Source: Octopus vulgaris
Taxonomy: Eukaryota
DNA: 64,000 nucleotides
Assembly (NCBI GenBank): GCA_951406725.2
Contig: OX597823.1
Coordinates: 43,586,001-43,650,000, forward strand
Direction of reading: 5' to 3'
Shown: one piece after another, positions 9,096 through 58,190 of the stretch
Numbering within the stretch: the first letter of the stretch is position 1
How the letters are laid out: each line of letters starts with the position of its first letter
Position numbers and translations under genes: made by a program
Notes under the pieces: generated by a model
Told to the model about the DNA's origin: nothing
Databases searched by the model: none
What the model saw: only the letters and a program-made list of their open reading frames with translations

Positions 9096-9195
9096 NNNNN
9101 NNNNNNNNNNNNNNNNNNNNNNNNNNNNNNNNNNNNNNNNNNNNNNNNNNNNNNNNNNNNNNNNNNNNNNNNNNNNNNNNNNNNNNNNNNNNNNN
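9096..9195. other. Assembly gap (100 N)
   Basis: Run of N. Confidence 1.
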
Positions 9196-12118
9196 GGAAG
9201 TTGTCCAGTGTCTTCGGCTCGAACGTACGTCGGAACAGACTGGCCAGCTGATTATCGTCGAGACCTAGGGTTTCCCCCAAGGTATCTTCACATTCCGCCT
9301 CTACCAACCCTCTATAGAAGAATGTGGTGGAACCCCCACCGCAGGCGTTGCCCGAGCGACGGAATAGCAGGAGAGCCTTGCGACACTCCATGTACCATGT
9401 GCCTATTTTCGATCTACGATTCAGCCAGGTTTCCCATCCACCGAAACTAGTGAACTTGGGAAACATCAGTTTTGCTAGCGGAGACCACACCCGTTCACCA
9501 TCCAGGTAGAGCCACAGATGTCTTAACCTCAGCGCATGTCTGCGCATCATCAGCCAAGGCATCCCTAGCCCACCCTTTAACGGTTGTTGATAGCAAGTAG
9601 AGCGTTTCACAAGTGGTTTCCCGCCCTTCCACAAGAAGTAGAAGAGCTGTCTTTCCAACTTGATCAACCACGAATCGGGGCAAGGAACGACGGAAAGGCG
9701 GTAGGTGATAACCGATGCGATAAACATATTGGCTACCTCCGCCCTCCCTTTCAGGGATAGCCACCGCCAAGACCAGGTCTTGGTTACTGCAGCCACCCTG
9801 CTCGATACCTCGTCCCAATTCTTCTCTATTTGGAGGTCTGGACCGAACCAAACCCCTAGCAACTTAATCGGACCCTCCGTCCAACGTCCCACGACGCTGT
9901 CAGGAGGCATCGACTTGCCTCTCCAGGTGCCGAGTTGCAAGCCGACTGACTTTTCGCGATTAACTTTTGCTCTTGTCACCGTCTCGTAAACCTCTATGGC
10001 CTTGCCTACTTTACATAGGTGGTCCATTTCGGTTACGATGATGGTGATGTCGTCCGCGTACGCTGACACTGATTTTCCATTACCTGGCTGTCTCGGGATG
10101 CCGCTCAGTTTTCGCAGTAATGGCTCAAGAGCCATCACGTACAAAAGCGGGGAGAGCGGACACCCTTGACAAACCGAGCGCTTGATGTTGAACGGCTTCG
10201 ACAAGAAGCCGTTCACCCGAACTACCGAGTCGATGTTGTCGTAAATTTGGATAATCCACCTGAGGAAGCCAAGGCTCAGCCCGAACTGTGCCAGGGCAGA
10301 TACCAGGTAGCGATGGTCGACCCTATCGAATGCTTTAGATTAGTCTAAATGGACCAGTGCCCCACCCTTGCCAGAATCGCTATTAAACCCCTCTATAGTG
10401 TACCGCATTAGATGGAGATTATCCTGAATGGTTCTGCCAGGAACGGCACATGTCTGTGCCTCCCCGATCAGACCATCCGCGACACGCGCCAATCTTTTCG
10501 ATAACACTTTGGCCAAAATCTTCAACTCTGTGTTTAGCAGAGTGATGGGCCTGAAATTATCAATGCACTCCCCCTTGCTCGGGTCCTTTCTGACGAGTGT
10601 CACTACTCCCCGGCGCACAGATCTGGGTATGAGCCCGTTCTGCTGCCAGTTCGCATAGACCTCCGCCAGTAGGTGCCCGAACAAGTCTGGCATACTCTTA
10701 TATAACTTATAGGGTAGACCATCTAAACCCGGCGCCTTGCCCGCGCCGCAGTCCGCCATCGCCTCAACCACCTCCCCAGGCGTGATTGGCCCTTCACAGC
10801 CCTCCGCATCTCGCCCCGATAAGCGCGGCAGCCCGTCGAGGAGGCCCTCCTCCTATCCAGTCCGCCGCACTCACCGAAAAGCTGAGCGAAGTGCTCCTGA
10901 AAGGCCTCGCACATCTCCTCGGGCTCGTTTAACAACTCACCTTGTTGGTTCGTCAAAGATCGAATCGTGGCATCGTTACCACGCTGAGCTTCCACCACTC
11001 GGGCCCATCTCACGGCGTTGATTCCTTCACAACCCATATGGCGGATCCTAGCCCTGACAATGCAGCCCATGTGTTTGGCCTCGAGGTGCTGGTTTAACAC
11101 CAGTCTCTTGGACGACACCTGAGCCGCAGAGCCAGTTTTCAAGGCTTCCTCTAATTCCTTAACTAGAGTAGTTTCCCTCCTAGCCTCTCTAGCCACTACT
11201 CCTATGCTATATCTAATTGACTCGAACTTGATGGCTCGTTTGAGGGCGTACCACCATTTGTTATTAATGATGGTACCAGATAGTGCCCTCTGAATTATAT
11301 TCCTAATCCGGTCTTTGTACTCCTTAATCCGGTCTTTGTACTCCTTAATCCGGTCTTTGTACTCCTTAATTAAGTTTCCAATAACCGGATCCTCTATTTT
11401 TAACCTTATCTATGTCAAGCTTACAAGTGACCATTTTATGATCACTGTAGCTGACCGGGTAAAACTGTGGACACTTAGCTATTTTACTGTCTACTTTTCT
11501 AATTAGTATTCTATCTAAATATGACCTGGAAGATCCGTCGCTGTTTGACCATGTCCACAATGGAGCGTTCGGAAATTCCAGCCTATAAGGATCTGCTAGC
11601 TCAAAGCGGCTTAGCGGTTCCATGAAGCCACTGTTACCTTTTCTATCTGAACGCGAGCCAACACAATCTACATCCGCTTTGCAAATTGTGTTAAAGTCTC
11701 CTAGCACAACTAATGAATGCGAAGTACCAAGAAAGTTTTCTTGTACACGAAAATAATCACTTTGCCCTGTACTGTTGGGTGCGTAAATTACAACCAGTCT
11801 GATAACTTTACCGTTACTGAACGTCAAATCCATGACGACCAGCCTACCTTCTGGATCTGCAAAAATTAACTTTTTCTCAGAAACCCGGTTTCTTTTTAAT
11901 AGGACCAACACCCCACTCCCGCCCGTAGGACTGCCAGGAGAGAAAAAACTCTCGTAGCCGTCAAACAGCGTGAGCAGACCTCTTGGCCCCTCTAACCGGG
12001 TTTCTGTAGCAACAATAACATCTAAATTACGCGACCTGATATCATGCAGGAAGCGACCTTGCTTCCAGCCTGCTCCCAGGCCGCGCACATTCAAACAACC
12101 AACATAAATGTAATCTAT
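9196..12118 (-). pseudogene. ORF2 (APE endonuclease-RT), disrupted
   Basis: NVRG/GDFN/SDH endonuclease motifs and QGCPLSP/YADD RT motifs. The start ATG is mutated, there is a 22-bp triplication plus deletion near 11305-11370, and further frameshifts and a stop. Confidence 0.9.
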
Positions 12119-12127
12119 TACTTACCT

Positions 12128-13442
12128 TTATATCAGTGATTCGGTTTTTTCTTTTTCTTCTTTGTTTATCTCTTTTTCTGGGCCTCGTGGGGGAGTCTGA
12201 CGTAGGCCCTCGAATATATATGGAGATGTTAAATCCATTCTGAGCGGGCCTGCGTCATGAAAGAATTCGGACTTTATCCACCCGTAATCCTTCCGGCCTA
12301 TTCTGTAAACTATATAGTCATTCTTTTTTCCTATTTTTTCCACTTTGGCCATAGCTGCCAACACGTTCCCGAGTCTGTTGTTTGATGCCTTAACGGCCAT
12401 ATATGAGTTCATCGACTCTCTTTTCTTTTTTAAGTTCACTCTGGGAGGGGTGGTTTCCGTTTTTCTTTTTTTCCTGGTGATTTTTGACCACCCCTCCTCA
12501 TTGCTCTTTTTTTCCTCTGCTGATGGTTCTGCTGCCTCTGTCACCTCCACACCTTCAGTCGTCCCTTCTGGGCCGCCCGGCGCTGCTTCTGGTGACACTT
12601 CATCTTCTTTTCCACCTGGCTGAGGTGCTTCCTGCAGTTTGGGTTGGGGTTGGCATTCCGCCCTTACATGACCCTTCTTGCCGCAGCCGAAGCACCTCGG
12701 CTTTCTGCCCTCTACGAAAACTGTTACTCTATCTTCTTCACTTATTTTTAGAGTTTCTGGAATCTCCTCCAGTGTTTGAATTTCTGCCTGAATGGCTATT
12801 ACTATCCGCTGCCCTTTCCAGAATTCCTCCTCCTCTACTGTGGCCTGGAGGATGTTTATTTTTTCCTCCAGGCCTACCATGACTGCTGCCACCAGACATT
12901 CGGCATCTGCCTCTGGCGGAATGTTATTCATCGTGATTTTTGATGTTCTTTTTCCTCTATACAAGGGGAGGAGAATAATGTTCTCCGCTTTTATTGGCTC
13001 CATAGACAGTTTTTTTAGCTATCTCCTCTGTTGTGAAACGCACCTCTACTGTGCCGTATCTCTTTCCTATGATGTTTGTGATCTTGTCCATTAATGGTTT
13101 TAAGCAATTCTCGATTTTTTTTTTCCTCAATTTTTTGTATCATTTTGCTTGTCGTATTAAAGGTCTTATAGATTATTCTTCTTTTTTCGATTTCATCGTG
13201 TTTTTGGACGTTTGTGACCACTGTCACTTCCGTGCCCTCTTTTGTAACACAGTCCGCATATTTCTTTAAGTCATCTACGTTTATTTTTTTGATTTTCTTA
13301 CCAGCTACTTCTGAGAATTTTTTCGCTGGTGCTGGTGCAGGGGTTTCCTTTTTCTTTGGCGCCACCGCCTCTTTTTTCTTTGGCGACACCGCCGGAGATT
13401 CTTCTTCACTAGTCACGGGAGAATATGAGATGGGGATTCCAT
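12128..13442 (-). pseudogene. ORF1 gag-like protein (CCHC knuckle), frameshifted
   Basis: CFGCGKKGHVRAEC; split across ORFs 13015-13578 and 12128-13003. Confidence 0.88.
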
Positions 13443-13668
13443 CTCGAACAACTGGCTTAATAAGCCCTTGGTAAATCCAAGATAAATGGTATTTTTCCCC
13501 CACGGAGGGGGGAACACCACCACGAAGTCCTCGCACGAAGGCTGACTTCAACAGTTGTACAGCAATGAACAAAGACAAATAGACACACAGTAGAAAATAA
13601 CGTAGAAAATATACACTAAGGAAAATTGTAATAACTCACTACACATGTGGATTGCGTTCCGCCATGTT

Positions 13669-14244
13669 GTTTTATTATTACCCACAAGGGGCGAACATAG
13701 ATGGGACAATACAATCGGGAAAAATGAATAATGAATTATGAAGTTTGTACAATGTGATGTAATGCCCACTCGATCCACGAAATCGAGCGGTTACATTTCG
13801 TCATTTGTTTTTTATTCGTCAACAATATTTTCCAAATAAAACATTTTACACATTTTCAACATACATTTCAAAAATTTTACAAAGTTCAACATTTTTCTTT
13901 CTTCAGAATTTAAAGTTCTTTTTATCATTTCCAAATTAAAGTTTTCACAATACCTTTTCTTTTATATATACTCCATTATCTCTACCAAATCTTGGTAAAT
14001 TTCCATCGTTCGTGGCCACCTTGTAAGTCGGCATTTCATATGTTTTGTCACGTACTTGACAGCTGCCTCGATGAACGCCTCAGCGTCGTTCTCGTGGACG
14101 AGTGCACCTGTTTCTTTCCATTCGGTGCCCATCCTGACCCACGTATATCCATTTGTAACGTTTATTAAATCTTCCATCTCCTCACAGTGCCTGTGATGGA
14201 TCAACGTTCCATAGTATTTGAATTTTCTATTCGTACCTACGTTT
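13669..14244 (-). mobile_element. 3' part of a divergent A-like ORF1-only element (A2); unit 9
   Basis: C-terminal peptide HCEEMEDL...EIMEYI aligns with family A FCPEMKDL...TMIEYV. It has the A-type 3'UTR hairpin (ctcgat..atcgag) and the shared terminus. Confidence 0.8.
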
Positions 14245-16888
14245 TCTGGGAGGGGTGGTTTCCGTTTTTCTTTTTTTCTGGTAATTTTTGCCCACCCCTC
14301 CTCATTTATCTTTTCCTCGCTCTTACTTTACTCCGCCGCTGGTTCTGCTGTCACCGTCACCTCCACACCTTCAGTCTTCCGTTCTGGGCCGTCCGGCGCT
14401 GCTTCTGGTGACACATTATCTTCTTTTCTCTTGGCTTAGGTGCTTCCTGCGGTTGGGGTTGGCATTCCGCCCTTACATGACCCTTCTTGCCGCAGCCGAA
14501 GCACCTCGGCTTCCTGCCCTCCACGAAAACTGTTATTTTCTCGTCTTCACTAATTTTTAACGTTTCTGGAATTTCTTCCAGTATTAAGTTTCCAGTAACC
14601 GGATCCTCTATTTTTAACCTTATCTATGTCAAGCTTACAAGTGACCATTTTATGATCACTGTAGCTGATCGGGTAAAACTGTGGACACTTAGCTATTTTA
14701 CTGTCTACTTTTCTAATTAGAATTCTATCTAAATATGACCTGGAAGATCCGTCGCTGTTTGACCATGTCCACAATGGAGCGTTCGGAAATTCCAGCCTAT
14801 AAGGATCTGCTAGCTCAAAGCGGCTTAGCAGTTCCATGAAGCCACTGTTACCTTTTCTATCTGAACGCGAGCCAATACAATCTACATCCGCTTTGCAAAT
14901 TGTGTTAGTCTCCTAGCACCACTAATGAATGCGAAGTACCAAGAAAGTTTTCTAGTTCACGAAAATAATCACTTTGCCCTGTACTGTTGGGTGCGTAAAT
15001 TGCAACCAGTCTGATAACTTTACCGTTACTGAACGTCAAATCCATGACGACCAGCCTACCTTCTGGATCTGCAAAAATTAACTTTTTCTCAGAAACCCGG
15101 TTTCTTTTTAATAGGACCAACACCCCACTCCCGCCCGTAGGACTGCCAGGAGAGAAACTCTCGTAGCCGTCAAACAGCGGGAGTAGACCTCTTGGCCCCT
15201 CTAACCGGGTTTCTGTAGCAACAATAACATCTAAATTACGCGACCTGATATCATGCAGGAAGCGACCTTGCTTCCAGCCTGCTCCCAGGCCGCGCACATT
15301 CAAACAACCAACATAAATGCAATCCATTACTTACCTTTATATCAGTGGTTCGGTTTTCTCTTGTTCTTCTAACTCTTTTTCTGTGCCTCGTGGGGGAGTC
15401 TGACGTAGGCCCTCGAATATATGTGGAGATGTCACCTCCAATCTAAGTGGGCCTACGTCGTGGAAGAATTCGGATTTTATCCGCCCGTAATCCTTCCGGC
15501 CTATTCTGTAGATTACAAAGTCATTTTTCTTTTCCACTTTCTCCATTTTGGCCATAGCAGCCAACACGTTTCCTAGTCTGCTATTTGCTGCCTTTACGGC
15601 CATATATGAGTCCATTGTCTCCCTTTTCTTTTTTAAAATTATTCTGGGAGGGGTGGTTTCCGTTTTTTCTTTTTTTCTGGTAATTTTTGCCCACCCCTCC
15701 TCATTTATCTTTTCCTCGCTCTTACTTTACTCCGCCGCTGGTTCTGCTGTCACCGTCACCTCCACACCTTCAGTCTTCCGTTCTGGGCCGTCCGGCGCTG
15801 CTTCTGGTGACACATTATCTTCTTTTTCTCTTGGCTTAGGTGCTTCCTGCGGTTGGGGTTGGCATTCCGCCCTTACATGACCCTTCTTGCCGCAGCCGAA
15901 GCACCTCGGCTTCCTGCCCTCCACGAAAACTGTTATTTTCTCGTCTTCACTAATTTTTAACGTTTCTGGAATTTCTTCCAGTGTTTGCACCTCCGCCTGA
16001 ATGGGTATCACTATTTTCTGCCCTTTCCAAAACTCCTCTTCCTCCACTGTGGCCTGGAGGATGTTTATTTTTTTCCTCCAGGCCTACCATCACTGCTGCC
16101 ACCAGACATTCTGCATCTGCCTCTGGCGGTATGTTGTTCATTGAAATTTTCGACGTCCTTTTCCCTCTATACAATGGTAGTAAAACAATGTTTTCTGCTT
16201 TGATCGGCTCCATCGATAGTTTTTTCGCTATCTCCTCAGTAGTAAAACGCACCTCCACTGTGCCGTATCTTTTTCCTCTGCTTATATAGGTTATTTTATC
16301 CATTAAAGGTTTTAGAGAAAACTCTATTTTTTTTTTCTTCGATTTTTTTAAATCATTTTTGTCGTTGTGTTGTAAGTTTTATATATTATTTTTTTTTTCT
16401 ATATCGTCATGTTTTTGTATGTTTGTGACCACAGTCACTTCTGTGCCCTCTTTTTTTACACAGTCTGCAAATTTTTCTAAATTTTCTACATTTATTTTTT
16501 TAATCTTTTTCCCAGCTACTTCAGCGAATTTTTTCGCTGGAGTTGATGCTGGTGCTGGTTTTTCCATTTTCTTGGGCGACGCCGCCTCTTTTTTCTTCGG
16601 CGACAACGCCTCTTTTTTCTTGGCGACAACGCCGGGTATTCATCCTCGCTCGTCACGGGCGAATAAGAGATGGGGGACTCCATCTTGAACAAATGGCTTT
16701 AACAAGCCTTTGGTAAATCCAAATTAATTGTAGTTTTCCCCCACGGTGGGGGGAACACCAACGCGAAGTCCTCGCGCGAAGGCTGACTTCGTCAGTTACA
16801 CAACAATGAACAAAACAGGTAGACAGACAGTATAGAATAACAGAGATAACAATACGAGAGCAAAAATATATCAACTTTCCGCCATGTT
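14245..16888 (-). mobile_element. Rearranged Tx1 element (type E2): 5'UTR, ORF1 (16683-15337), EN domain only (15327-14583), then a re-copied ORF1 segment (14582-14245); unit 8
   Basis: 14245-14582 duplicates ~15643-15982; ORF2 stops at GYWKLNT. Confidence 0.87.
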
Positions 16889-17869
16889 GTTTTAATATTA
16901 CCCACAAGGGGCGAACATAGATGGGACAATACAATCTGATGATGGGGTCAGACACACGAATGGGTTTTTACAATAAAACGAATTTAAAAATTTTCATGAA
17001 ATTACAATAAATGGACAGAAATCGAATGATGTAACAGACCGGAAGACATTACGGGTGGAGTGGGTGCGGGTTTAGCTCGGACCCCACGAGCCCCGCCTCC
17101 CCACTGATACTTTTGGTTACGCTTGGTCTTACATTTATGTTTTCTGCTTTGAAAGTCTCCATCGATAGTTTTTTCGCTATCTCTTCAGTGGTAAAACGCA
17201 CCTCCACTGTGCCGTGTCTTTTACCTCTGTTTATATATGTTATTTTGTCCATTATCGGTTTCAGACAAAATTCTATTTTATTTTCCTCGATTTTCTGTAT
17301 CATTTTTGTTGCTGTGTTGTAAGTTTTATATATAATTCTTTTCTTCTCTATATCGTCTTGTTTCTGTATGTTTGTGACCACAGTCACCTCTGTGCCCTCT
17401 TTCTTTACACTGTCTGTGCAAATTTTTCCAGATTTTCAACATTTATTGTTTTAATCTTTTTCCCAGCTACTTCAGCGAATTTTTTCGCTGGAGTTGATGC
17501 TGGTATTGATTTTTCTATTTTTTTGGGCGACGCCGCCTCCTTTTTCTTCGGCGATAACGCCTCTTTTTTTCTTGGCGACAACGCCTCTTTTTTTCCTGAT
17601 GTCAACGCTGGGTATTCGTCCTCGCTCGTCACGGGCGAATAAGAGATGGGGGACTCCATCTTAAACAAATGGCTTTAACAAGCCTTTGGAGATTCCAAAA
17701 TAATTGTAGTTTTCCCCCACGGAGGGGGGACACCAAGCGCGAAGGCTGACTTCTTCAGTTAAACAACAATAAACAAACAGGTATACAGACAATATAGAAA
17801 AACAGATAACACTATGAGAGCAAAATATATAAACTTACTAACAGACGCAAAAATAGCTTTCCACCATGT
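16889..17869 (-). mobile_element. ~1 kb internally deleted E-type element (5'UTR and ORF1 N-terminus fused to the E 3'UTR); unit 7
   Basis: ORF1 runs to KAENI, then continues directly into taaatgta and the 3'UTR seen at 21286-21530. Confidence 0.88.
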
Positions 17870-19632
17870 GATTTTATTACTACCCACAAGGGGCGAACAT
17901 AGATGGGACAATACAATCGGGGAACTTAAAATAAGAAAGCGAATGACAAGAAAAGGAAAAAATAAAAGTAAAAAATGACATATGAAAGAATATTTACAAT
18001 GAGATGTAAATGCCCACTCGATCCCCGGAATCGAGAGGTTACATTTTCGTCACATATATTTCAACAAAATTTTCTTTTTTCTCTTTTTTTTTTCTTCTCA
18101 CAATTCTATACATATTCTATCATAGTTTCCACTTCTCTGAAGTCCATCACTGAGCCCTCAAGCAGCCGCTCTCTCACTCGAACCTTCGTGTAAAATATTA
18201 CACTCTCTCCGGCAGCTCTGAGGAACTCAGCGACTCTTTCTTCGGGGATTAGAGCAGTCTCCTGCCACTGATCGGTCATCCTGTTGATCCATATATGTCC
18301 CTCCGTATTACATGTCAAGTCTTTCATTTCAGGGCAGAAATGGAAGGTTACTAACTTGTAGTAGTAGTAATCTTGTTTCCGTCCTACGTTTTCCTTCATT
18401 TTCCTTTTCGGGCTTATTTCTTCCTTGTTCTCCTCTCTTTGTTTCTCTCTTTCTTTCTTTTTGCCTTTTCTTTCTCCTTCCTTCTCTTGTCTTTTTGGTT
18501 CTTTGTCTGTTCTCTCTTTCTCTCGTGTTTTATGTTCCTTTTCTTTTTCCTTTTGTGTGCTGTCTTTTCTTTTCGTTTGATTCTGATCTCTCTTGTTTTT
18601 TTCCTATTGTTTCTTTTTCCTTTTTTTTTTCCTGACTCTGTTTTGGTTCTATTTCTTTTTCTTTTATTTCTTTTTCCTTCATTGACTTATTATTTCCTTT
18701 CTCTTGTTGTTTTGTTTCCTTTTCTGTTTTCTTTCTCATTTACAGTATTCTTCTTTTCTTCAAGTTCCTGCTCGCACTCCGCTACGAATTCGTATAACGG
18801 GCACTCTTTTTTAATGTGCCCCCTTGTCCCACACAAGTAACAGTTTGGTTTTCTCCCCTCTACAATTACGCTGAGGGTTTTTTCCTCTTCAATTTCAATT
18901 CTGTATGGGAACCTTTCAATATCCTCTTTTGTGGCCATCAACCACAATTCTACCCCATATCCTCTCCAGTTTACCGCGTTGGACTCCTTAATTGATTCCA
19001 CCTCCACTTCCTCTTCTGCTGCTCCTAGAATAGCTGTTCCCAGCCATTCTGTTTTCACTTCTGGGGGTATATTCGGGATTTTAACCCGGACCCCTCTTCT
19101 TCCCTTGTATGAGGGCCACATTGTGAATTTTTCGGCTCTTAGTACGGTGGTAGCCAGTGAGGCCGCAATTTCTTCCGTTGCACATCTCACCTCCACCGTA
19201 CCAAATTTCTTGCCTCTACTCACGTAGGTTATTTTCCCCATTATGTCTCCCAGACATTTTTCAATTTCGACTCTCCACTCTTGCCAGTTTCTTCGTATTT
19301 TTGTCTTTGGTTCTGTATGTCACTGTCTTGCTTTCTTTATCCTCTTTTGCTTTCGCGGGGGGGATTAGCTTCACGCTATCACCCTCCCTTTTGAAGAGCT
19401 TTTCATATTCTTTGAGTTTATCCTTCTCAAAGAAAACCTCCTTTATGATTATCGACGAATCGTTATTTTTCCCGGTGACCCCCGCGTAAGTCGCCATGAC
19501 TAGAGGGTCAATTCACCTTCTTCGAAAGGTTTCCACACGTGGAGGCAAACGCCTCGCGCGATATCAAATCAATTTACACAGAAAAAATTTCACCGTCTAG
19601 TCACAGATAACACACATAGCTTTCCTCCATGT
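17870..19632 (-). mobile_element. ORF1-only element, family A; unit 6
   Basis: ORF1 19497-18106 (MATYAGV...CYLCGTRGHIKKEC...MIEYV, frameshifted); no ORF2; flanked by a 16-bp near-direct repeat. Confidence 0.9.
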
Positions 19633-21285
19633 AATTTCTTTATTACCCACCAGGGGCTACGAAGAATGGCGGACATAACAAAACATGGGGGACATAGAAC
19701 AATATGATTAAATTTATGAGCAAATGAATATTAAAATGAAAGCGATGCTAACGGCCCCCTCCGCTAGCATCACTTACCTGTCCTTTTGTTTTCACTGTCT
19801 CCTGAATGTTCATTCCCAATACGAAGACCATCCATATCCATTCTTACTCCGAAACTGTCCTCCATATATTCCACGAATTCATCGCTCATTCTTGTATCTT
19901 TCACCTCCCAATTCTCCCTTTCACACCTCAACACAAACTCATCTATATTCTTCTTTTCCAGCACTGTATATCTGGTCCCATCCATTTCATACCATTCATA
20001 CTCCTCCATTATCCTTTTAACTTCTTTCTGTTCAGTCACAATATAAATGTTCGGCCTGGGTTCGTTTTCAAACTCTTGTCTGTGTGTATTTTTCTTTTCT
20101 TTTCTTGTTGGAGGGGAGCGGGTGGGTTCACTGTCTGCAGCGGAAGGGTGGGATTCAGAGGGTGCGGGTGGGTTGGGGCTTCGCACAGTTTTTCTTTTTC
20201 TTTCTTTTTCTCTTTTCTTCCTTCTTCCCACTCTTGTTGCATCTCCTCTTCTATCGTTTCTTTTTCCCTTTGGTTCTCTTTGGTTTCTTCCTCTTTTGGA
20301 GCTTCCGCGACGATTTCCTTTTCTTTTTCCTTTGGTGGGGGAGGGCAGTAGGCTCTTATGTGACCCCTTTGGCCACACTTGTAGCACCTGGGCGCCCTAC
20401 CCTCCACCCACACTCTCATAATAATATTTCCAGTTTTTATACTGTCCGTAAGCTTTTCTATAACTTCCGCCTCCGTCTGTATGTTCATTACTAGTGTGGC
20501 ACCTCTCACGCCTTCATATTTCATAATGGCGTGGAGGATGTCCACTTTATCTTCATTTCCTTTGATAACCGCAGCCGTTATTAATTCGCCCTCTAGGTGT
20601 GGAGGTATTCCTTCCACCCTAATTCTGGTGGTCCTTCTATTCAAATACGAGGGGAACAAGTAAAACTTTTCTGTACTCACCACCTTGGCTGCTATATTCC
20701 TGGCTGCTTTCTCACTTTTAAATTGTACCGTTATGGTTCCATATTGTAATCCTTTTGTCATGTACACAATTTCTTCTGTCTGTTTGAAAGCCTCTTCAAT
20801 TGCTTCCATGTTAATCACTTCCATTTTTCTACCTCCATTCAGAAATACTTTATATTTAATGGTTCTACGATGGAACCAGTCTCCGCGCCCTGCTAGAGGC
20901 AACAGCTCAACCTCACCGTTCTCCTCCTCCTTCATGAACTCCTGGAAGTCCGTCAACTTAGCCAGGTCTATCTCTTTTTCTGTTGACTTCTTCGTTATAC
21001 CTGCATAGGTGCTTTCCATTTTTTTCACCGCCAACTCCTCCTCAGATGTCGACGAAATTTCAGAGAAATTTCTCCCTTGCATCTCATCCGTTTGGTAGAG
21101 GCGGCTCATAGTCGCCTCAGACCGAAAAACGGCCTCCCGAACCGAATAAGTGCAACGCGCAGAACCAGTGAAACGCGAAACCGCATCAACGACGCTCAAA
21201 ATTTCACCACAACAACCACAATACTTTTTGTTCTTATTTCTTTTTTAACCGAATTTTACAGAGCGCAAAAAAACACGACCGCCGA
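19633..21285 (-). mobile_element. ORF1-only element with B-type N-terminus and C-type C-terminus; unit 5
   Basis: ORF1 21109-19770 (CYKCGQRGHIRAYC...RTGK), apparently one frameshift; short 3'UTR with the shared terminus. Confidence 0.88.
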
Positions 21286-24200
21286 TATTTCTTTATTACC
21301 CACTAGGGGCCACATAGAGGGGACAATACAATCTGATGATGGGGTCACACACAAATGGGTTTTACAAAAAAAGCGAATTTTAAAAATTTACAGAAATTTA
21401 CAAAAATAGCAAGAAATCGAATGTTGGAACAGACCGGAAGACATTACGGGTGGAGTGGGTGCGGGTTTAGCTCAGACCCCACGAGCCCCGCCTCCCCACT
21501 GATACTTTTGGTTTCGTTTGGTGTTACATTTATGTTGTATCATTCACTCGCAACTTTCGTGCTACATCTTTCCATCGTTCTTCATACACTCTCTTAGTCA
21601 GGCATATTCTCTCCAGCCCTATCTTCCTTTTCAGGTGAAAGATGAAATAATTCATCAAACCAGGGCCGGAGATGAACTTGCCTGACTGTAGACCTTTCAT
21701 TCTCGTCTTCCATATCACCTCTTTCGCAATTGCTACTACAACGAGAAAACGAAACTTACCTTCATTCGCGAGGAAATCCGGTGGGTCAATTTTTGTAATC
21801 GACTCAGTCGACAGCTGTACTCTTCGTGTACTTGACAACAGCTGTTCGGCATAAACCCATGCCTCAGACACGTCCGGACAATGAACAATAGCCTGCGGGA
21901 CGGTTTCCCTATGCCGCTCGCATCTTGGACATATCGGACTGTCTTGGCCACCGTGCCTTGCGAGTTTATCCCGAACAGGTAGAGCTCCTCTGTAGCATTG
22001 CCATGCCAGAGACTTCTGTTAATTGTCCAGTGTCATCGGCTTGAACGTACGTCGGAACAGACTGGCCAGCTGATTATCGTCGAGACCTAGGGTTTCCCCC
22101 CAAGGTATCTTCACATCCCGCCTCTACCAACCCTCTATAGAAGAATGTGGTGGAACCCCCCACCGCAGCCGTTGCCCGAGCGACGGAATAGCAGGAGAGC
22201 CTTGCGACACTCCGTGTACCAAGTACCAAGTTTCGATCTACGATTCAGCCAGGTTTTCCATCCACCGAAACTAGTGAACTTGGGAAACATCAGTTTTGCT
22301 AGCGGAGGCCACACCCGTTCACCATCCAGGTAGAGCCACAGATGTCTTAACCTCAGCGCATGTCTGCGCATCATCAGCCAAGGCATCCCTAGCCCACCCT
22401 TTAACGGTTGTTGACAGCAAGTAGAGCGTTTCACAAGTGGTTTCCTGCCCTTCCACAAGAAGTAGAAGAGCTGTCTTTCAAACTTGATCAACCACTAATC
22501 AGGGCGAGGAACGACGGAAAGGCGGTAGGTGATAACCGATGCGATAAACGCATTGGCTACCTCCGCCCTCCCTTTCAGGGATAGCCACCGCCAAGACCAG
22601 GTCTTGGTTTCTGCAGCCACCCTGCTCGATACCTCGCCCCAATTCTTCTCTATTTGGAGGTCTGGACCGAACCAGACCCCTAGCAATTTAATCGGACCCA
22701 ACGTCCCACGACGCTGTCAGGAGGCATCGACTTGCCTCTCCAGGTGCCGAGTTGCAAGCCGACTGACTTTTCGCGATTAACTTTTGCTCCTGTCACCGTC
22801 TCGTAAAACTCTATGGCCTTGCCTACTTTACGTAGGTGGTCCATTTCGGTTACGATGATGATGTCATCCGCGTACGCTGACACCGATTTTCCACTACCTG
22901 GCTGTCTCGGGATGCCGCTCAGTTTTCGCAGTAATGGCTCAAGAGCCATCACATACAAAAGCGGGGAGAGCGGACACCCTTGACGAACCGAGCGCTTGAT
23001 TTTGAACGGCTTCGACAAGAAGCCGTTCACCCGAACTACCGAGTCGATGTTATCGTAAATTTGGATAATCCACCCGAGGAAGCCAAGGCTCAGCCCGAAC
23101 TGTGCCAGGGCAGGTACCAGGTAACGATGGTCGACCCTATCAAATGCTTTAGATTGGTCTAAATGGACCAGTGCCCCACCCTTGCCAGAATCGCTATTAA
23201 ACCCCTCTATAGTGTACCGCATTAGATGGAGATTATCCTGAATGGTTCTGCCAGGAACGGCACATGTCTGTGCCTCCCCGATCAGACCATCCGCGACACG
23301 CGCCAATCTTTTCGATAACACTTTGGCCAAAATCTTCAACTCTGTGTTTGGCAGAGATAGGCCTGAAATTATCAATGCACTCCCCCTTGCTCGGGTCCTT
23401 TCTGACGAGTGTCACTACTCCCCGGCGCACAGATCTGGGTATAAGCCCGTTCTGCTGCCAGTTCGCATAGACCTCCGCCAGTAGGTGCCCGAACAAGTCT
23501 GGCATACTCTTATATAACTCATAGGGTAGACCATCCAAACCCGGCGCCTTGCCCGCACCGCAGTCCGCCATTGCCTCAACCACTTCCTCAGGCGTGATTG
23601 GCCCTTCACAGCCCTCCGCATCTCGCCCCGATAAGCGCGGCAGCCCGTCGAGTAGGTCCGTAAAGGCCCTCCTCCTATCCAGTCCGCCGCACTCACCGAA
23701 AAGCTGAGCGAAGTGCTCCTGAAAGGCCTCACACATCTCCTCGGGCTCGTTTATCAACTCACCTTGTTGGTTCGTCAAAGATCGAATCGTGACATCGTTA
23801 CCATGCTGAGCTTCCACCACTCGGGCCCATCTCACGGCGTTGATTCCTTCACAACCCATATGGCGGATCCTAGCCCTGACAATGCAGCCCATGTGTTTGG
23901 CCTCGAGGTGCTGGTTTAAAACCAGTCTCTTGGACTCCACCTGAGCCGCAGAGCCAGTTTTCAAGGCTTCCTCTAATTCCTTAACTAGAGTAGTTTCCCT
24001 TCTAGCCTCTCTAGCCACAACTCCTATGCTATATCTAATTGACTCGAACTTGATGGCTCGTTTGAGGGCGTACCACCATTTGTTATTAATGATGGTACCA
24101 GATAGTGCCCTCTGAATTATATTCCTAATCCGGTCTTTGTACTCCTTAATCGCCAAAAGGGACGTATTAAGTTTCCAGTAACCGGATCCTCTATTTTTAA

Positions 24201-26467
24201 CCTTATCTATGTCAAGCTTACAGGTGACCATTTTATGATCACTGTAGCTGATCGGGTAAAACTGTGGACACTTAGCTATTTTTCTGTCTACTTTTCTAAT
24301 TAGTATTCTATCTAAATATGACCTGGAAGATCCGTCGCTGTTTGACCATGTCCACAATGGAACGTTCGGAAATTCCAGCCTATAAGGATCTGCTAGCTCA
24401 AAGCGGCTTAGCAGTTCCATGAAGCCACTGTTACCTTTTCTATCTGAACGCGAGCCAACACAATCTACATCCGCTTTGCAAATTGTGTTAAAGTCTCCTA
24501 GCACAACTAATGAATGCGAAGTACCAAGAAAGTTTTCTAGTTCACGAAAATAATCACTTTGCCCTGTACTGTTGGGTGCGTAAATTGCAACCAGTCTGAT
24601 AACTTTACCGTTACTGAACGTCAAATCCATGACGACCAGCCTACCTTCTGGATCTGCAAAAATTAACTTTTTCTCAGAAACCCGGTTTCTTTTTATTAGG
24701 ACCAACACCCCACTTCCGCCTGTAGGACTGCCAGGAGAGAAAAGACTCTCGTAGCCGTCAAACAGCGGGAGTAGACCTCTTGGCCCCTCTAACCGGTTTT
24801 CTGTAGCAACAATAACATCTAAATTACGCGACCTGATATCATGCAGGAAGCGACCTTGCTTCCAGCCTGCTCCCAGACCGCGCGCATTCAAACAACCAAC
24901 ATAAATGTAATCCATTACTTACCTTTATATCAGTGGTTCGGTTTTTCTTTTTCTTCTTTCTTTATCTCTTTTTCTGGGCCTCGTGGGGGAGTCTGACGTA
25001 GGCCCTCGAATATATATGGAGATGTTAGATCCATTCTGAGCGGGCCTACGTCATGAAAGAATTCGGATTTTATCCGCCCGTAATCCTTCCGGCCTATTCT
25101 GTAAACTATATAGTCATTCTTTTTTCCTATTTTTTCCACTTTGGCCATAGCTGCCAACACGTTCCCGAGTCTGTTGTTTGATGCCTTAACGGCCATATAT
25201 GAGTTCATCGACTCTCTTTTCTTCTTTTGGATCACTCTGGGAGGGGTGGTTTCCGTTTTTCTTTTTTTCTGGTGATTTTTGACCACCCCTCCTCATTGCT
25301 CTTTTTTTCCTCTGCCGCTGGTTCTGCTGCCTCTGTCACCTGCACACCTTCAGTCGTCCCTTCTGGGCCGCCCGGCGCTGCTTCTGGTGACACTTCATCT
25401 TCTTTTTCACCTGGCTGAGGTGCTTCCTGCGCTTTGGGTTGGGGTTGGCATTCCGCCCTTACATGACCCTTCTTGCCGCAGCCGAAGCACCTCGGCTTTC
25501 TGCCCTCTACGAAAACTGTTATTCTCTCTTCTTCACTTATTTTAAGGGATTCTGGAATCTCCTCCAGTGTTTGGATTTCTGCCTGAATGGCTATTACTAT
25601 CCGCTGCCCTTTCCAGAATTCCTCCTCCTCTACTGTGGCCTGGAGGATGTTTATTTTTTCCTCCAGACCTACCATGACTGCTGCCACCAGACATTCGGCA
25701 TCTGCCTCTGGCGGAATGTTATTAATCGTGATTTTCGATGTTCTTTTTCCTCTATACAAGGGGAGGAGAACAATGTTCTCCGCTTTTATTGGCTCCATCG
25801 ACAGTTTTTTTTTGCTATCTCCTCTGTTGTGAAACGCACCTCTACTGTGCCGTATCTCTTTCCTCTGTTGATGTATGTAATCTTGTCCATTAATGGTTTT
25901 AAACAATTCTCGATTTTTTTTCCTCAATTTTTTGTATCATTTTGGTTGTCGTATTAAAGGTCTTATAGATTATTCTTCTTTTTTCGATTTCTTCATGTTT
26001 TTGGGCGTTTGAGACCACTGTCACTTCCGTGCCCTCTTTTGTAACACAGTCCGCATATTTCTTTAAGTCATCTACGTTTATTTTTTTGATTTTCTTACCA
26101 GCTACTTCTGAGAATTTTTTTCGCTGGTGCTGGTGCAGGGGTTTCCTTTTTCTTTGGCGCCACCGCCTCTTTTTTCTTTGGCGACACCGCCGGAGATTCT
26201 TCTTCACTAGTCACGGGAGAATATGAGATGGGGGATTCCATCTCGAACAACTGGCTTAATAAGCCCTTGGTAAATCCAAGATAAATGGTATTTTTCCCCC
26301 ACGGAGGGGGGAACACCACCACGAAGTCCTCGCACGAAGGCTGACTTCAACAGTTGTACAGCAATGAACAAAGACAAATAGACACACAGTAGAAATTAAC
26401 GTAGAAAATATACACTAAGGAAAATTGTAATAAATCACTACACATGTAGATTGCGTTCCGCCATGTT
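21286..26467 (-). mobile_element. Full-length Tx1-clade element (type E1), ~5.2 kb; unit 4
   Basis: 5'UTR, ORF1 ~26241-24926, ORF2 24915-21530 and 3'UTR; several small indels. Confidence 0.95.
21530..24915 (-). pseudogene. ORF2 APE-RT-Zn finger, frameshifted
   Basis: ORFs 23233-24915, 22680-23375, 22495-22701, 22135-22491 and 21530-21871 are collinear with the intact ORF2. Confidence 0.92.
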
Positions 26468-28152
26468 GATTCTTTATTACCCACTAGGGGCTACATAGAG
26501 GGGGCGTTACAAACATTGGGGACATAGAACATCACAATTACATAGATATGAGTAAAATGAATTATGAAAATGATATGAAAGCGGTGCCAACGGCCCCATC
26601 CGCTAGCACCACTTACCTGTCCTTTTGTTTTCACTGTCACCTGAATGTTCATTCCCAATACGAAGACCATCCATATCCATTCTTACTCCGAAATACTCCT
26701 CCATATTTTCCACGAATTCATCGCTCATTCTTGTATCTTTCACCTCCCAATTCTCCCTTTCACACCTCAACACAAACTCTCCCTTTCACACCTCAACACA
26801 AACTCATCTATATTCTTCTTTTCCAGCACTGCATATCTGGTCTCACCTATTTCATACCATTTATACTCTTCCATTACCCTTTTAACTTCTTTCTGTTCAG
26901 TCATAATATAAATGTTCGGCCTGGGTTCGTTTTCAAACTCTTGTCTGTCTGTATTATTTTTTTTCTTTTGTTTTCTTGTTGGAGGGGAGCGGGTGGGTTC
27001 ACTGTCTGTAGGGATAGGGTGGGTCTCAGAGGGTGTGGGTGGTGTTGGGGTGGATTGGTGTTCTGTTATTTTCTTTTCCTCGTATTCTCCTCTTCCTCTT
27101 ATTCCCAGCTTCTTTCCATTTCTGTGAATTCTTCTTCTACCGTCTCCTTCTCCTCTGGTTTCTGCTTCTCTCTCTCTGGTTCGGAATCCATTTCTTTCAC
27201 TGGGGGAGGGCAGAAGGCTCTTATGTGACCCCTCAGGCCACACTTGTAACAACGTGGAGCTCTGCCCTCCACACACACTCTCATGATCACGTCTCCCAAT
27301 CTGATGCTTTCCGCCAGGTCCACCAGTACATCGTTCTCTGCCTGCACGTTCAGATCCACTGTTACGCCTCTCCAGCCCTCGGTCTTAACCGAGGCATGGA
27401 GAATATCCACTTCCTCCTCGTGGCCGCTAATCACAGCCGCCACTATCCACTCAGCCTCAACGTTTGGTGGCACTCCCTCGACCCTTACTCGTGTAATTTT
27501 TCTGTTTAAATACGTAGGCAAAAGTGTTACCTTTTCGGATTTCACCGCCTTCGCCGCCATCTTCCTTGCTGCATTCTCACTTTTAAAATGTACCACTACA
27601 GTACCATACTTTGATCCTCGAGTCAGAAAATTAAATTCCTCCTCCGTTCTTCTCAGCGCCTCCTCTATCCACTCCATGTTTACAACTTCTATCTTCTTCC
27701 TTTCGTTTGCGAACACCCTGTATATAATGGTCCTTTTATCATACCATTCCTTTCTCTTGGGTGTCGGTGCTAGTTCCACCTCACCGCTATCCTTTTTCAT
27801 ATATTTCTGGTAACTTGGCAGCTTGGCCAAGTCGACCCCTTTCTCTTCCGCCTTCTTGGTTACACCGGCATAGGTATAACCCAGCTTTCGATCCATCATT
27901 CTCACTGCCTGTTCCAGTTCCTCCTCAGACGTAGACAAGTCTGATAGGGAATCAAAGTCCATTTCCTTCTGTCTGACAGACCGCAAACGGCCGCCCGAAC
28001 AGAAAGTGTAACTCGCAGAACCAGTGCAACGCGAAACCGCATCAACGACGTTCAAAATTTCTACAACAACCACAATACTTTTTGTTCTTTTTTCTTTTTT
28101 AACCGAATTTTACAGAGTGCAAAAAAACACGACCGCCTGTGTGAAAATCTGA
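26468..28152 (-). mobile_element. ORF1-only element, family C; unit 3
   Basis: ORF1 from 27962 (MDFDSL...CYKCGLRGHIRAFC); frameshift and a 26-bp tandem duplication at 26753-26804; shared terminus. Confidence 0.9.
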
Positions 28153-29823
28153 TTTCTTTATTACCCACTAGGGGCTACATAGAGGGGACGTTACAAACAT
28201 TGGGGACATGGAACATCACAATTACATATATATGAGCAAAATGGAATATGAAAATGATATATGAGAGTGATACCGACGGCCCCATCCGCCAGCATCACTT
28301 ATCTGTCCTTCTTCACCCATTTCCAATTAGTATTCCTGTTTTATCTATCACAACATTCGTTTTTCTTTTAGCCCTCTCTATCCATTCCTCTTTCATTTCC
28401 ACTGACTTCCAACACACACCCTCTTCCTCAAACCTTGTCGCCAATATACCCGTATCATCACTATCCACAGCCGTGTAGCTCCAATCTTCGTGTTCGTACC
28501 ACTTGGTTAACACCAGTTTTTTAACGTTTTGTATGTCTTTCCCATGTATAACACATAAAAAATGGGTCTTGGGACTTTCTTTGCTCTGTGTGTCTGTTTT
28601 TATTTTTCTTGTAGGCGGGGAGTGGGTGGAATTACTGTTTGCAGGGGAAGGATGGGACTCCAAGGGTATGGGTGGTGTCGGGGTGGGTTGGGGCTTCGCA
28701 CAGTTTTTCTTTTTCTTTCTTTTTCTCTTTGTTCCCCCTTCTTTCCACTCTTGTTGCATCTCCTCTTCTTCTGTCGTTTCCCTCTCTGTTTGTTTCTGTT
28801 TATTTTCTTCCTCTCTTGAGGCTTCCTCAACGCTTTCCTTTTCTTTTTCCTTTGGTGGGGGAGGGCAGTAGGCTCTTATGTGACCCCTTTGGCCACACTT
28901 GTAGCACCTGGGCGCCCTACCCTCCACCCACACTCTCATAATAATATTTCCAGTTTTTATGCTGTCCGTAATCCTCTCTATAACATCCGCCTCCGTTTGA
29001 ATGTTCATAACTAGTGTGGCACCTCTCACGCCTTCATACTTCATAATGGCGTGGAGGATGTACACTTTATCTTCATTTCCTTTTATAACCGCAGCCGTTA
29101 TTAATTCGCCCTCTAGGTGTGGAGGTATTCCCTCCACCCTAATTCTGGTTGTCCGCCTATTCAGATACGAGGGTAACAAGTAAATCTTTTCTGTACTCAC
29201 CACCTTGGCTGCTACATTCCTGGCTGCTTTTTCACTTTTAAATTGCACCGTTACGGTTCCGTATTGTAATCCTTTTGTCATGTACACAATTTCCTCTCCT
29301 GTCTGCTTGAGAGCCTCTTCAATTGCTTCCATGTTAATTACTTCCATCTTTCTACCTCCATTCATAAATACTTTATATTTAATGGTTCTACGATGGAACC
29401 AGTCTCCGCACCCTACTGGATGCAGCAGCTCAACTTCACCGTTCTCGTCCTCCTTCACAAACTCCTGGAGGCCCGCCAACTTCGCCAGGTCTATCTCTCT
29501 TTCCGTTGACTTCTTCGTTACACCTGCGTAGGTGCCTTCCATCTTTTTCACCACCACCAACTCCTCCTCAGATGTCGATACTTCCGTCGAAATTTCAGAG
29601 TAAATTCTCCCTTCCATCTCCTCCGCTTGATGGAGGCGGCTCATAGTCGCCTCAGACCGAAAAACGGCCTCCCGAACCGAAAAAGTGCAACGCGCAGAAC
29701 CAGTGAGACGCGAAACCGCATCAACTATGTTCAAAACTTTACAACAACAACCATTCACTTTTTGTTCTTTTTTCTTTTTACCGAATTTTACAGAGCGCAA
29801 AAAAACACGACCGTTCAATCTGA
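28153..29823 (-). mobile_element. ORF1-only element, family B; unit 2
   Basis: One intact ORF plus the shared 3' module. Confidence 0.9.
28313..29644 (-). CDS. Intact gag-like ORF1 protein (443 aa from the ATG), RRM-like region plus CCHC knuckle
   Basis: MSRLHQ...YAGVT...YGTVTVQF...CYKCGQRGHIRAYC, a K/E-rich linker and a distinct C-terminal domain; uninterrupted. Confidence 0.85.
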   Translation of the reverse strand: MSRLHQAEEMEGRIYSEISTEVSTSEEELVVVKKMEGTYAGVTKKSTEREIDLAKLAGLQEFVKEDENGEVELLHPVGCGDWFHRRTIKYKVFMNGGRKMEVINMEAIEEALKQTGEEIVYMTKGLQYGTVTVQFKSEKAARNVAAKVVSTEKIYLLPSYLNRRTTRIRVEGIPPHLEGELITAAVIKGNEDKVYILHAIMKYEGVRGATLVMNIQTEADVIERITDSIKTGNIIMRVWVEGRAPRCYKCGQRGHIRAYCPPPPKEKEKESVEEASREEENKQKQTERETTEEEEMQQEWKEGGTKRKRKKKKNCAKPQPTPTPPIPLESHPSPANSNSTHSPPTRKIKTDTQSKESPKTHFLCVIHGKDIQNVKKLVLTKWYEHEDWSYTAVDSDDTGILATRFEEEGVCWKSVEMKEEWIERAKRKTNVVIDKTGILIGNG

Positions 29824-31566
29824 TTTCTTTATTACCCACTAAGGGGCTACGAAGAATGGCGGACATAACAAAACATGGGGACATAGAACATTATAATTAA
29901 ACTTTATGAAAATGAATTGTTAAACGAAAAAATGATAAAATGAAAGCGATACCAACGGCCCCGTCCGTCAGCATCACTTACCTGTCCTTTGTTTTTCATA
30001 GTCACTTGAATGTTCTTTGCCAATACGAATAAATTCCATATCCATTCTTACTCCGAAATACTCATTCATATTTTCCACGAATTCATCGCTCATTCTTATA
30101 TCTTTCACCTCCCAATTCTCCCTTTCACACCTCCCCATAAACTCACCTATGTTCTTCTTTTCAATCACAGCATACCTAGTCTCTCCAACATCATACCATT
30201 TATACTCTTCCATTAGACTTTTAACTTCCCTCTGTTCAGTCATAGTACAAATGTACGGCCTGGGTTCGATTTCAATCTCTTGTGTGTGTGTATTCTTTTT
30301 TTTTCTTTTGTTTTCTTGTTGGGGGGGAGCGGGTGGGTTCAATGTCTGCATGGATAGGGTGGGACTCAGAGGGTGTGGGTGGTTTTGGGGTAGATTGGAG
30401 TTCCATATTATTTTCTTTTCCACGTATTCTTCTCTTCCTCTTACTTCCAGCTTCCTTCCATTTCTGTGTATTCTCTTCCTCTGTTTCCTTCTCCTCTGGT
30501 TTCTGCTTCTCTCTCTCTGGTTCGGAATCCATTTCTTTCCCTGGGGGAGGGCAGAAGGCTCTTTTGTGACCCCTCAGGCCACACTTGTAACAACGTGGAG
30601 CCCTGCCCTCCACCCACACTCTCATGATCACGTCTCCCAGTCTGATGCTTTCCGTCAGGTCCACCAGCACCTCGGTCTCCGCCTGTACGCTCAGCTCCAC
30701 CGCTACGCCTCTCCAGCCCTCGGACCTAACCGAGGCATGGAGAACATCCACCTCGTCCTCGCGGCCGCCGATCACAGCCGCCACAATCCACTCTGCCTCC
30801 ACGCCCGGTGGCACTCCCTCCACCCTCACTCGTGCAATCCTCCTGTTTAAATACGTAGGTAATAGGGTTACCTTTTCTGACTTCACCGCCTTCGCCGCCA
30901 TCTTCCTCGCTGCAGACTCAGTTTTGAAATGCACAACTACGGTACCGTACTTGGATCCTCGAGTCAGAAAATTTATTTCCTCCTCAGTTCTTCGCAGGGC
31001 TTCCTCTATCCATTCCATGGTTACAACTTCTACCCTCTTCTTTTCGTTTGCGAACACCCTGTAAATAATGGTCCTCTTATCATACCATTCTTTTCTCCTG
31101 GGTGTCGGTGATAGTTCCACCTCACCGCTTTCCTTTTTCATGTATTTCTGGTAACTTGCCAACTTGGCCATGTCGACCCCTTTCTCTTCCGCCTTCTTGG
31201 TTACACCGGCATAGGTATAACCCAGCTTCTCTTCCAAGTTCCTTGCTGCCATTTCTAGCTCCTTCTCAGACGTAGGCAGGTCTGATAAAGACTCGAAAAC
31301 TCCAGCCTTTTCTTCCATCAGCTTCATTGCAATTGCCTGTTCCAGTTCCTCATCTGTCGTGGACAAGTCTGTTAGAGACTCATAGTCCATTTCCTTTCTG
31401 TCTGACAGACCGAAAACGGCCGCCAAAACAGAAAAAGTGTAACGCGCTGAACGAGCGAAAGGCGAAACCGCGTCAACGCCGTTCAGAATTTCCACAAAAA
31501 CAACAACGCTTTTTGTTCTTTTTTACCGAATTTTACAGAGCGCAAAAAAACACGACCGTTCAATCT
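29824..31566 (-). mobile_element. ORF1-only element, family C; unit 1 (5'-most of array 1)
   Basis: ORF1 31390-29974 (CYKCGLRGHKRAFC...RTGK) with one frameshift near 30420. Confidence 0.9.
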
Positions 31567-31779
31567 TCTTTTTTCTCTACATTGAATACTTTATAGACAA
31601 TAGTCTTTTCTTTAATTTAATTTTTTATTATCCATCTGGACTATTCCATTTCTGCACGCTAATTTTATTTTTAATTTATTCATGTAATACTGAAATAGTG
31701 GAGAAGATATGATATTGCTATGGGCTCGCTCTAGGCAAGAAGTTGAACATTTTTTTTTTTTTGCCGATGACACTCCCCG

Positions 31780-31870
31780 GACCCTTAGTAAGGCATGTGT
31801 AAAATTTGAATGAAATTGGTTGTGTAGTTCTCAAGTTTTAGGGAAACACAGACAGGCACACATTCTCAGT
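31780..31870 (+). repeat. Dispersed repeat fragment (also at ~62568-62650)
   Basis: tgtgtaaaatttgaatgaaattggttgtgtagttctcaagttttagggaaacaca is identical at both places. Confidence 0.85.
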
Positions 31871-32177
31871 TTTATATATATAAAGATACCTGTCGTAAAC
31901 CCGAGAGTTGCTAAGCAGATTGCACTGTGAGACACGATTTTTGTCCTTGGGTAGTAATTTTTATCTCCTGTTTGCTTACCCCTGGAAAGTATGAAAAATG
32001 GCTAATATTTCCTTCAAACTTTGCTTTTGCTACATTTATTCAAACCCCAAAGAATTCCTCTCAACACATGGCTAAGATGCTCCCCCACTCCTCCTGCTTA
32101 TGATCAGATATGAACTTTATTGTCAGCCTACAAAGGGACATCTTCAAATGGTTAATGTCAAGCAACTGACATACAAA

Positions 32178-39806: not shown

Positions 39807-40054
39807 TGTTTTATTATTACCCACAAGGGGCCAACAAAGAGGGGACAATACAACCTGATGTGGGGTCAGATTCTCGGATGGGGTTACAAAAAGGATGAGA
39901 TTAAAAATTCAAAAATTCACAAAAATGCAAAAATTATAAAATCGAATGAAAAAACAGACCGGAAGACATTACAGGTGGAGTGGGGGCGGGTTCAGCTCGG
40001 ACCCCACGAGCCCCGCCTCACCACTGATACTTTTGGTTTCGTTCTGATTTACAT

Positions 40055-43453: not shown

Positions 43454-43461
43454 CACTTACC

Positions 43462-54345: not shown

Positions 54346-54361
54346 CCGATAGGACGTTACT

Positions 54362-54412
54362 CCCCGATTGTATTGTCCCCTCTATGTGGCCCCTAGTGGG
54401 TAATAAAGAAAT
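54362..54412 (+). mobile_element. 51-bp 5'-truncated insertion of a family A 3' end; unit 15
   Basis: Matches 56143-56193 with one mismatch; flanked by perfect ccgataggacgttact repeats. Confidence 0.88.
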
Positions 54413-58008: not shown

Positions 58009-58190
58009 CCGATAGGATGTTACTTATTCATCGATACTCAAAAACTGAACTTTCACCAACTGAATACTCGTCATGTAGTGCCTTACTGCTTTCTGCTGGA
58101 TTTTACCTCGAGAAAGGAACCCTGAGGAAGGAGGGCTGAATTTCGAATACTTCGTACAAAAAACGGCTGCAGGTTAGGAAAAAAAATTAA
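58009..58190 (+). mobile_element. 5'UTR remnant of an E3/E4-like element terminating array 3
   Basis: gatactcaaaaactgaacttt matches the 5' end of unit 12 (reverse complement of 39786-39806). Confidence 0.65.

Follow-up and report, generated by a model that had tools for sequence, protein, structure and literature searches.

The window analysed here is a 64,000-nucleotide stretch of the Octopus vulgaris genome (GCA_951406725.2, contig OX597823.1, positions 43,586,001 to 43,650,000 of the forward strand), and it holds three arrays of retrotransposons; all positions below are those of the window. Array 1 lies on the minus strand and begins directly behind the upstream (5') part of a copy of a non-autonomous Helitron-like repeat, here called repeat X (31567-31886; 82-98% by blastn to empty copies, with a TC start after a host A). 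First behind this anchor, and probably newest, stands unit 1 (29826-31566), a C-type element with ORF1 at 30272-31522. Like unit 1, unit 2 (28152-29825; C9, with a zinc knuckle below the Pfam cut-off), unit 3 (26467-28151; B8) and unit 5 (19633-21285; B5) are ORF1-only elements, and unit 4 (21286-26466) is an E-type LINE with ORF1 and ORF2 in broken frames. Unit 6 (17870-19616) is an ORF1-only element of family A with a zinc knuckle and a frameshifted ORF, and it branches early on the ladder-shaped tree of that family. Then come an E-type element with an internal deletion (unit 7, S type; 16888-17853), a rearranged E-type element with a G-type 3' end (unit 8; 13668-16887) and an E-type LINE (unit 9; 9196-13667), which runs into an assembly gap at 9096-9195; no downstream Helitron half of array 1 was seen within the window. 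We use the term leader for the short sequence at the start of a unit, for example 26451-26466 in unit 4 and 16872-16887 in unit 8.

Array 2 (34838-44568, minus strand) consists of two D-type LINEs and includes an open ORF2 of 1,133 amino acids (40055-43456, minus strand) with APE endonuclease, reverse transcriptase (RT) and zf-RVT domains. Array 3, on the plus strand, has two further D-type LINEs in its upstream part (44640-54345), a 5'-truncated 51-bp insertion between two identical 16-bp leaders (54346-54428) and two family A units (54429-58008), the second with a composite leader that encloses a leader of the site-1 type described below. It ends at repeat Y (58009-58255, plus strand), a second dispersed target repeat (181 candidates, 40 scored) and the source of the array-3 leader. 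At 44568-44640, array 2 abuts array 3 in head-to-head orientation; the loss of both 5' ends there points to an inversion or rearrangement. A short element with terminal inverted repeats, which we take to be Tc1/mariner-like, is nested in repeat Y at 58250-58740. The region 9196-42258 (arrays 1 and 2 and their spacer) has a second copy, 97-99.7% identical, on contig 15 (G000:C15:65.72-65.75 Mb; L060, L031, L061), either a segmental duplicate or an unresolved haplotype.

The long units can be identified as non-LTR retrotransposons of the L1/Tx1 type. The array-2 ORF2 matches PF03372 (1.6e-15), PF00078 (5.1e-31) and PF13966 (1e-8), that is, an N-terminal APE endonuclease, an RT and a C-terminal zinc-binding domain, and its best PDB match is human L1 ORF2p (2.6e-68; R2 proteins 1e-18 to 1e-25). 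The elements have no LTRs, truncated 5' ends are present among the copies, and at unrelated sites the target-site duplications measure 14-19 bp in 13 of 15 cases and exactly 16 bp in 6 of 15 (15 cases chosen from 40 loci, each with an upstream copy adjoining the element's 5' end). A CCHC zinc knuckle in ORF1 is a feature of the Tx1 clade, and the family A ORF1 scores above the cut-off for PF00098. In an RT tree built from 108 of 121 RT domains and without named Tx1 references, the nearest named neighbours are fish elements, at a node that carries no support value, and three of these neighbours have ZCCHC3-type ORF1 domains. The ORF1 also groups with a ZCCHC3 cluster at 0.90 in the Atlas, which we treat as a lead only, and the database matches for Tx1 relatives are all named "hypothetical protein". 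Strict membership of the Tx1 clade is likely for the LINEs.

The A, B and C units (1.65-1.75 kb) encode just an ORF1-like protein with a zinc knuckle, and their likeness to the LINEs is confined to the last 40-55 bp. With ORF1 only, no ORF2 and a 3' end in common with a LINE, they are HAL1-like. Folding of three tails gave one that was better than its shuffles (z -2.5; the others -0.65 and -0.33), and we make no claim of a conserved fold. Contigs of four putative RNA runs cover parts of a solo A locus, and transcript starts are not readable from them.

The preliminary description had proposed that unit 6 is bracketed by a 16-bp duplication, and this is borne out: 17854-17869 (the leader of unit 7) and 19617-19632 (the leader of unit 6), both on the minus strand, agree at 15 of 16 bases on either side of a 1,747-bp family A unit. 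In the look-alike on contig 15 (L031), both copies are identical, so the single mismatch in the window is probably a later mutation. The Helitron site from which the leader derives (site 1, below) accounts for 14 of the 16 bases; the final two coincide with the start of the A and S bodies, which places the true duplication at 14-16 bp. The duplication is real, its length is usual for target-site duplications of this retrotransposon family, and reading it as a product of target-primed reverse transcription is supported. With up to three mismatches allowed, the 16-mer occurs at five places in the window (13652, 16872, 17854, 19617 and 26451), all five at junctions between the 3' tail of one element and the head of the next. 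The further proposal that the tail upstream is the constant feature of junctions holds for internal junctions only; the first unit of an array has Helitron DNA before it.

Where the leaders come from became apparent from other arrays that contain A units, whose last tails run into one common repeat, X. Helitrons start with TC after a host A, have neither terminal inverted repeats nor a duplication, and end in a hairpin followed by CTAG and a host T. Among 30 loci of repeat X, the hairpin is present in 25, followed in 22 of them by CTAG and a T (counted by hand), and the 5' end could be located in 19, with TC clear in about half and the rest blurred by TA runs. The 3' ends, and the 5' ends where they are clear, are those of a Helitron, and we describe X as a non-autonomous Helitron-like repeat. 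The docking sequence within it, site 1, has at least 1,093 exact copies; the first 30 comprise 24 empty sites, five with a LINE-family tail directly upstream and one with another insertion. Site 1 lies inside a decayed ORF1 remnant, which is 24-35% identical to the ORF1s of the window (E to 8e-21), and in a long form of X (L073, L080) a related Tx1-type element is represented by its 5' UTR and the decayed beginning of its ORF1.

A sample of 70 of the 245 LINE 3' ends gave 28 that run straight into repeat X, four into repeat Y (a fifth Y match being a TA-repeat artefact), eight into the head of another element and one into a SINE. PMC4494074 recognises a Tx1 target preference when more than 20% of flanks fall in one repeat, a share that the 28 of 70 in X exceed. 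The other 28 of the 70 have no match to any target in the comparison library, so targeting is leaky and family-dependent. Of 33 E-type 3' ends, 27 (counted by hand) lead into the site, 21 of them into site 1 itself and six into a leader of the site-1 type. The leader of array 3 belongs to arrays docked in repeat Y. The leaders go back to fixed sites in X and Y, both of them dispersed repeats.

Several junctions depart from this pattern. E and A copies with a B/C-like tail end (21286-21310, 56171-56194 and 57985-58008 in the window; L107, L123, L161 and L271 elsewhere) mostly sit in other targets, namely repeat Y, B heads and a SINE, which suggests that tail swaps re-target an element. The cuts of the B and C types are spread over several positions, as much as about 40 nt upstream of site 1, and where C-type elements sit on C-type elements (L069, L228, L277), the first 15-17 bases of the head are duplicated and there is no Helitron leader. 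A host RNA gene was also considered as a target and rejected: the window contains no tRNA gene or Rfam match.

To order the units within arrays, we aligned 104 full-length A units from 43 stretches and built a tree, which has the shape of a ladder. Rooted on A-prime, it places the upstream unit as more derived in 13 arrays, less derived in one and tied in three (p=0.002), and adjacent A pairs favour a more derived upstream member by 19:1, with 42 ties. Rooting on the distant G family puts the root mid-ladder and reverses the ratio (4:11), a result that we judged unreliable because the outgroup branch is about 43-45% long. The order of the A units is therefore independent of the root, while its direction depends on it. 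Copies towards the far end of the ladder tend to have nearer relatives in other places (over all units, rho -0.51; when each array contributes a single unit, -0.25, p=0.12). The growth direction that we propose rests on the A-prime root, such proxies of copy age and the logic of the leaders.

This logic is as follows. A case is informative if two or more of 10 bases in the downstream leader depart from the Helitron, and there are 56 such cases. In 39 of the 56, the upstream leader is identical to that of its downstream neighbour; in 8 of 56 it is identical to that of its nearest relative in another array. Between neighbours of different families or subfamilies, the leader is closer to the neighbour's in 16 of 19 cases, to the Helitron in two and tied in one (hand count, leaving out three Y-docked cases). 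These matches exclude entry at the last tail, whose Helitron flank is unaltered, and leaders handed on from the downstream neighbour would look array-specific. The tree and the leader comparison thus uphold the earlier proposals that the leader is not fixed by family but tends to go with the array (array 3 has another leader before family A) and that each insertion leaves a usable site. Solo copies (e.g., L039, C8_58) have an upstream leader that differs from the downstream site, which suggests that a leader probably also arrives with the donor RNA and that leaders are mosaics of resident and donor. The contig 15 look-alike agrees with the window over 9196-21276 (98.6-99.7%) and differs only at the upstream end, with one different unit, versus four in the window, between unit 5 and the Helitron. 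Altogether, new copies likely enter at the upstream end, the front of the stack.

What sets the position of insertion is best seen in a deletion variant of X, in which about 320 bp are removed and a second sequence (site 2) is moved to the position of site 1. Empty copies of this variant number 111 by exact match to the commoner spelling (the first pattern tried gave 0). All seven site-2 arrays with a visible upstream Helitron flank are in the deletion variant (L046, L052, L055, L289, L291, L325, L329; hand count). Intact X has the same local site-2 sequence and is itself roughly ten times commoner, as judged from exact counts of different patterns. In these seven arrays site 2 is thus used at its new distance and not in its native place, which suggests that targeting is positional, and in two further arrays (L323, L328) still different downstream sequences occupy the place of site 1. 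A TATA-like word stands 36 or 39 nt before all 27 filled sites for which the distance was measured and before 11 of the 23 empty sites so measured (a further 16 filled and two empty sites gave no value, and the pattern may mirror Helitron subfamily). In repeat Y, such a word lies 31-38 nt upstream of the hot spot (by eye), and none was found upstream of the 15 off-target sites. The word falls inside the decayed ORF1 coding remnant and may be incidental. Between two Helitron variants the spacing differs by 3 nt with the cut base unchanged, which indicates that local sequence matters too. A brief start typical of the family is retained in off-target copies, most of which are truncated: 24 of 27 on-target copies are full length versus at most 7 of 33 off-target (hand count, with part of the loci chosen by class; p=1e-7). 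The position is likely set by the upstream Helitron DNA and not by the tail of the previous copy.

We propose, at a probability of about 0.75, that unit 6 is an ORF1-only derivative of an L1/Tx1-type LINE family which stacks at a single place within repeat X, and that it was copied by the LINE's ORF2p into the place before the then-first element, duplicating its leader, with the Helitron DNA upstream dictating the position. What the arrays themselves display is the site, how long the duplication is, their polarity and the leaders that neighbours have in common; the following steps would connect these. The RNA of the element would be recognised through the common 3' tail, and ORF2p would nick the bottom strand 36-39 nt downstream of the TATA-like word of the Helitron, each family weakly favouring particular bases in the first 3-4 positions. 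The top strand would be cut about 16 nt further on, and a cDNA end with a target-like leader would anneal to the overhang, which would yield mosaic leaders and on-target copies that are mostly full length. Reuse would be confined to the junction that retains Helitron DNA upstream, so that the newest copy stands first and older ones are pushed downstream. Candidates for the reader of the upstream DNA are ORF2p itself and a promoter-bound host factor.

A more specific version, which we put forward only tentatively, has an APE-type LINE tethered to a promoter inside the Helitron and inserting at the transcription start; a new full-length copy would take over the promoter and displace the previous one, and the 5' leader of its RNA would complete the junction. 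If this were so, each array would be an ordered record of the evolution of its family, and the target sequence could change without a change in the endonuclease.

It is rather unlikely that recognition is instead of the classical Tx1L kind, with the endonuclease of each subfamily reading its own site of roughly 20-30 bp and the upstream junction being reused because most of these bases lie upstream. The Tx1L endonuclease alone does nick its own site specifically, according to the part of PMC1950540 on which we draw, and in the octopus the off-target sites keep the family-specific first 3-4 bases, mostly with a pyrimidine before the nick, and the 3-nt change in spacing leaves the cut base where it was. 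However, the bases flanking the nick at site 2 do not differ between intact and deleted X, and yet use of this site is seen only in the rarer deleted form; leaders with 3-5 changes are still usable; and the cuts of several families fall on different bases, all within about 40 nt of one anchor.

Some arrays contain long homogeneous A runs (22 units on contig 7 and 8 on contig 22, many of them 0% apart), which may have come from unequal exchange, not transposition, and may inflate the 56 leader cases. The contig 7 run (G000:C7:100.087-100.126 Mb; L212-L216; about 39 kb) looks like an incipient satellite. Identical neighbours of this kind would be expected if order came from selection and not from targeting, with insertion at any junction, transcription confined to the copy that adjoins the Helitron DNA upstream, and lengthening of arrays mainly by unequal exchange; so would the mostly full-length state of on-target copies, if transcription needs the flank. 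We nevertheless regard such selection as very unlikely, because neighbours of different families, or of subfamilies 5-14% apart on the tree, are still ordered, and because a bias in transcription would act on the donors and not on the position of the new copy.

This leaves the central proposal of the preliminary description, that ORF2p nicks just behind the 3' tail of a resident element and duplicates whatever follows. A LINE-family tail does precede 152 of 217 element heads, the others following upstream DNA of X (40), Y (2), a SINE tail (0) or other sequence (23, including several false motif matches; the loci were mostly chosen for LINE content), leaders are shared by units of the same array, and the tail is common to all families. 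The LINE tail end also belongs to an abundant SINE-like repeat: among 22,872 exact copies of the tail, the first 30 are all SINEs. No element head follows any of the 89 distinct SINE tails despite the same tail end, which means that the most abundant tail of the genome draws no insertions. First insertions need no tail upstream, the last tail runs into a fixed repeat site and not random flank, and neither polarity nor leader inheritance is compatible with growth at the last tail, so nicking behind a resident tail is scarcely credible. Self-targeting by the tail falls with it, as the leaders trace to fixed repeat sites and arrays grow at the upstream end, away from the tails. The alternative offered at the time, that the 5' ends of E-type elements are the target, is right in that copies land before the newest head, and wrong in that a head of any family serves and upstream Helitron DNA is needed. 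The SINE-like repeat itself (about 225 bp; L001-L030, e.g., L014, L017, L023) is often followed by its own copy from one internal position, and this self-joining gives 184-bp tandems at 36 of the 89 tails, an apparent targeting of SINE into SINE.

Target choice by APE-type LINEs is usually credited to an endonuclease that reads its site; the natural deletion and the strictly one-sided reuse described here point to an upstream and possibly positional determinant. The ordered arrays also offer a rare built-in chronology of retrotransposon subfamilies and a route from dispersed elements to 40-kb tandem arrays. Self-tail targeting would have been the bigger surprise, and it does not hold.

The octopus arrays can be set beside several known systems. 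The Drosophila telomeric elements HeT-A and TART form polar head-to-tail arrays of ORF1-only and complete elements, in which a new copy joins before the previous 5' end and 5' tags are carried over; they add to chromosome ends without a duplication. The octopus arrays are like them in polarity, mixed element types, joining at the front and 5' tags, and unlike them in being internal and made by endonuclease-type insertions with a duplication.

Much is already known, so far as the portions of the sources cited here go: Tx1 families that target transposons, tandems around a duplication, arrays from double insertion, ORF1-only riders and tandems placed relative to an anchor. What we add is the refutation of tail targeting, one-sided growth with hand-over of the leader, and the deletion-variant test. 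Our literature searches, which did not extend to Repbase Reports or subscription journals, found no paper on a Tx1 family that docks in or targets a Helitron, and the section of PMC13282606 at hand gives counts of L1-Tx1 and Helitrons only.

HAL1 (half-L1) elements are non-autonomous, encode ORF1 only and arose several times (PMC5753468), and the octopus A, B and C units are alike in these respects. HAL1s are mammalian L1 derivatives, unlike the octopus stacks, and the available part of that source does not mention site-specific stacking. In Dictyostelium, TRE5-A inserts at a fixed distance from an anchor, new copies enter between anchor and resident, and its ORF1 protein binds TBP in vitro (PMC5391098, in the part at hand). 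The octopus arrays would be similar in that a non-LTR element probably sits at a fixed distance from an anchor, enters on the anchor side and forms tandems. The TRE5-A anchor, however, is a tRNA gene with A and B boxes, and the octopus window has no tRNA gene or Rfam match that could act as a Pol III anchor. The R1 and P tandems of Drosophila, in the part of 10.1101/158386 that we cite, arise because the duplication preserves the target, by repeat insertion, and can expand through unequal exchange. Double insertion at a regenerated site is common to both, whereas the octopus arrays reuse only one of the two regenerated junctions and stack several families in order.

Further counterparts, within the portion of PMC4494074 considered, are Tx1-clade LINEs that target other transposons: Xenopus Tx1L targets Tx1D (piggyBac), crocodilian Tx1-Mar and SINEU-3 target Mariner-N4_AMi, and Tx1-9_AMi targets a Harbinger. 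As in the octopus, an APE-RT LINE uses a fixed site in a multicopy non-autonomous transposon, makes a duplication of about 16 bp, forms tandem copies that sandwich a duplication and has non-autonomous riders. The octopus arrays differ in that the repeat which hosts them is Helitron-like, a kind of target that this portion of the source does not name, and the riders encode ORF1, and in that they reach up to 22 units, show polarity and pass a mutable leader from unit to unit.
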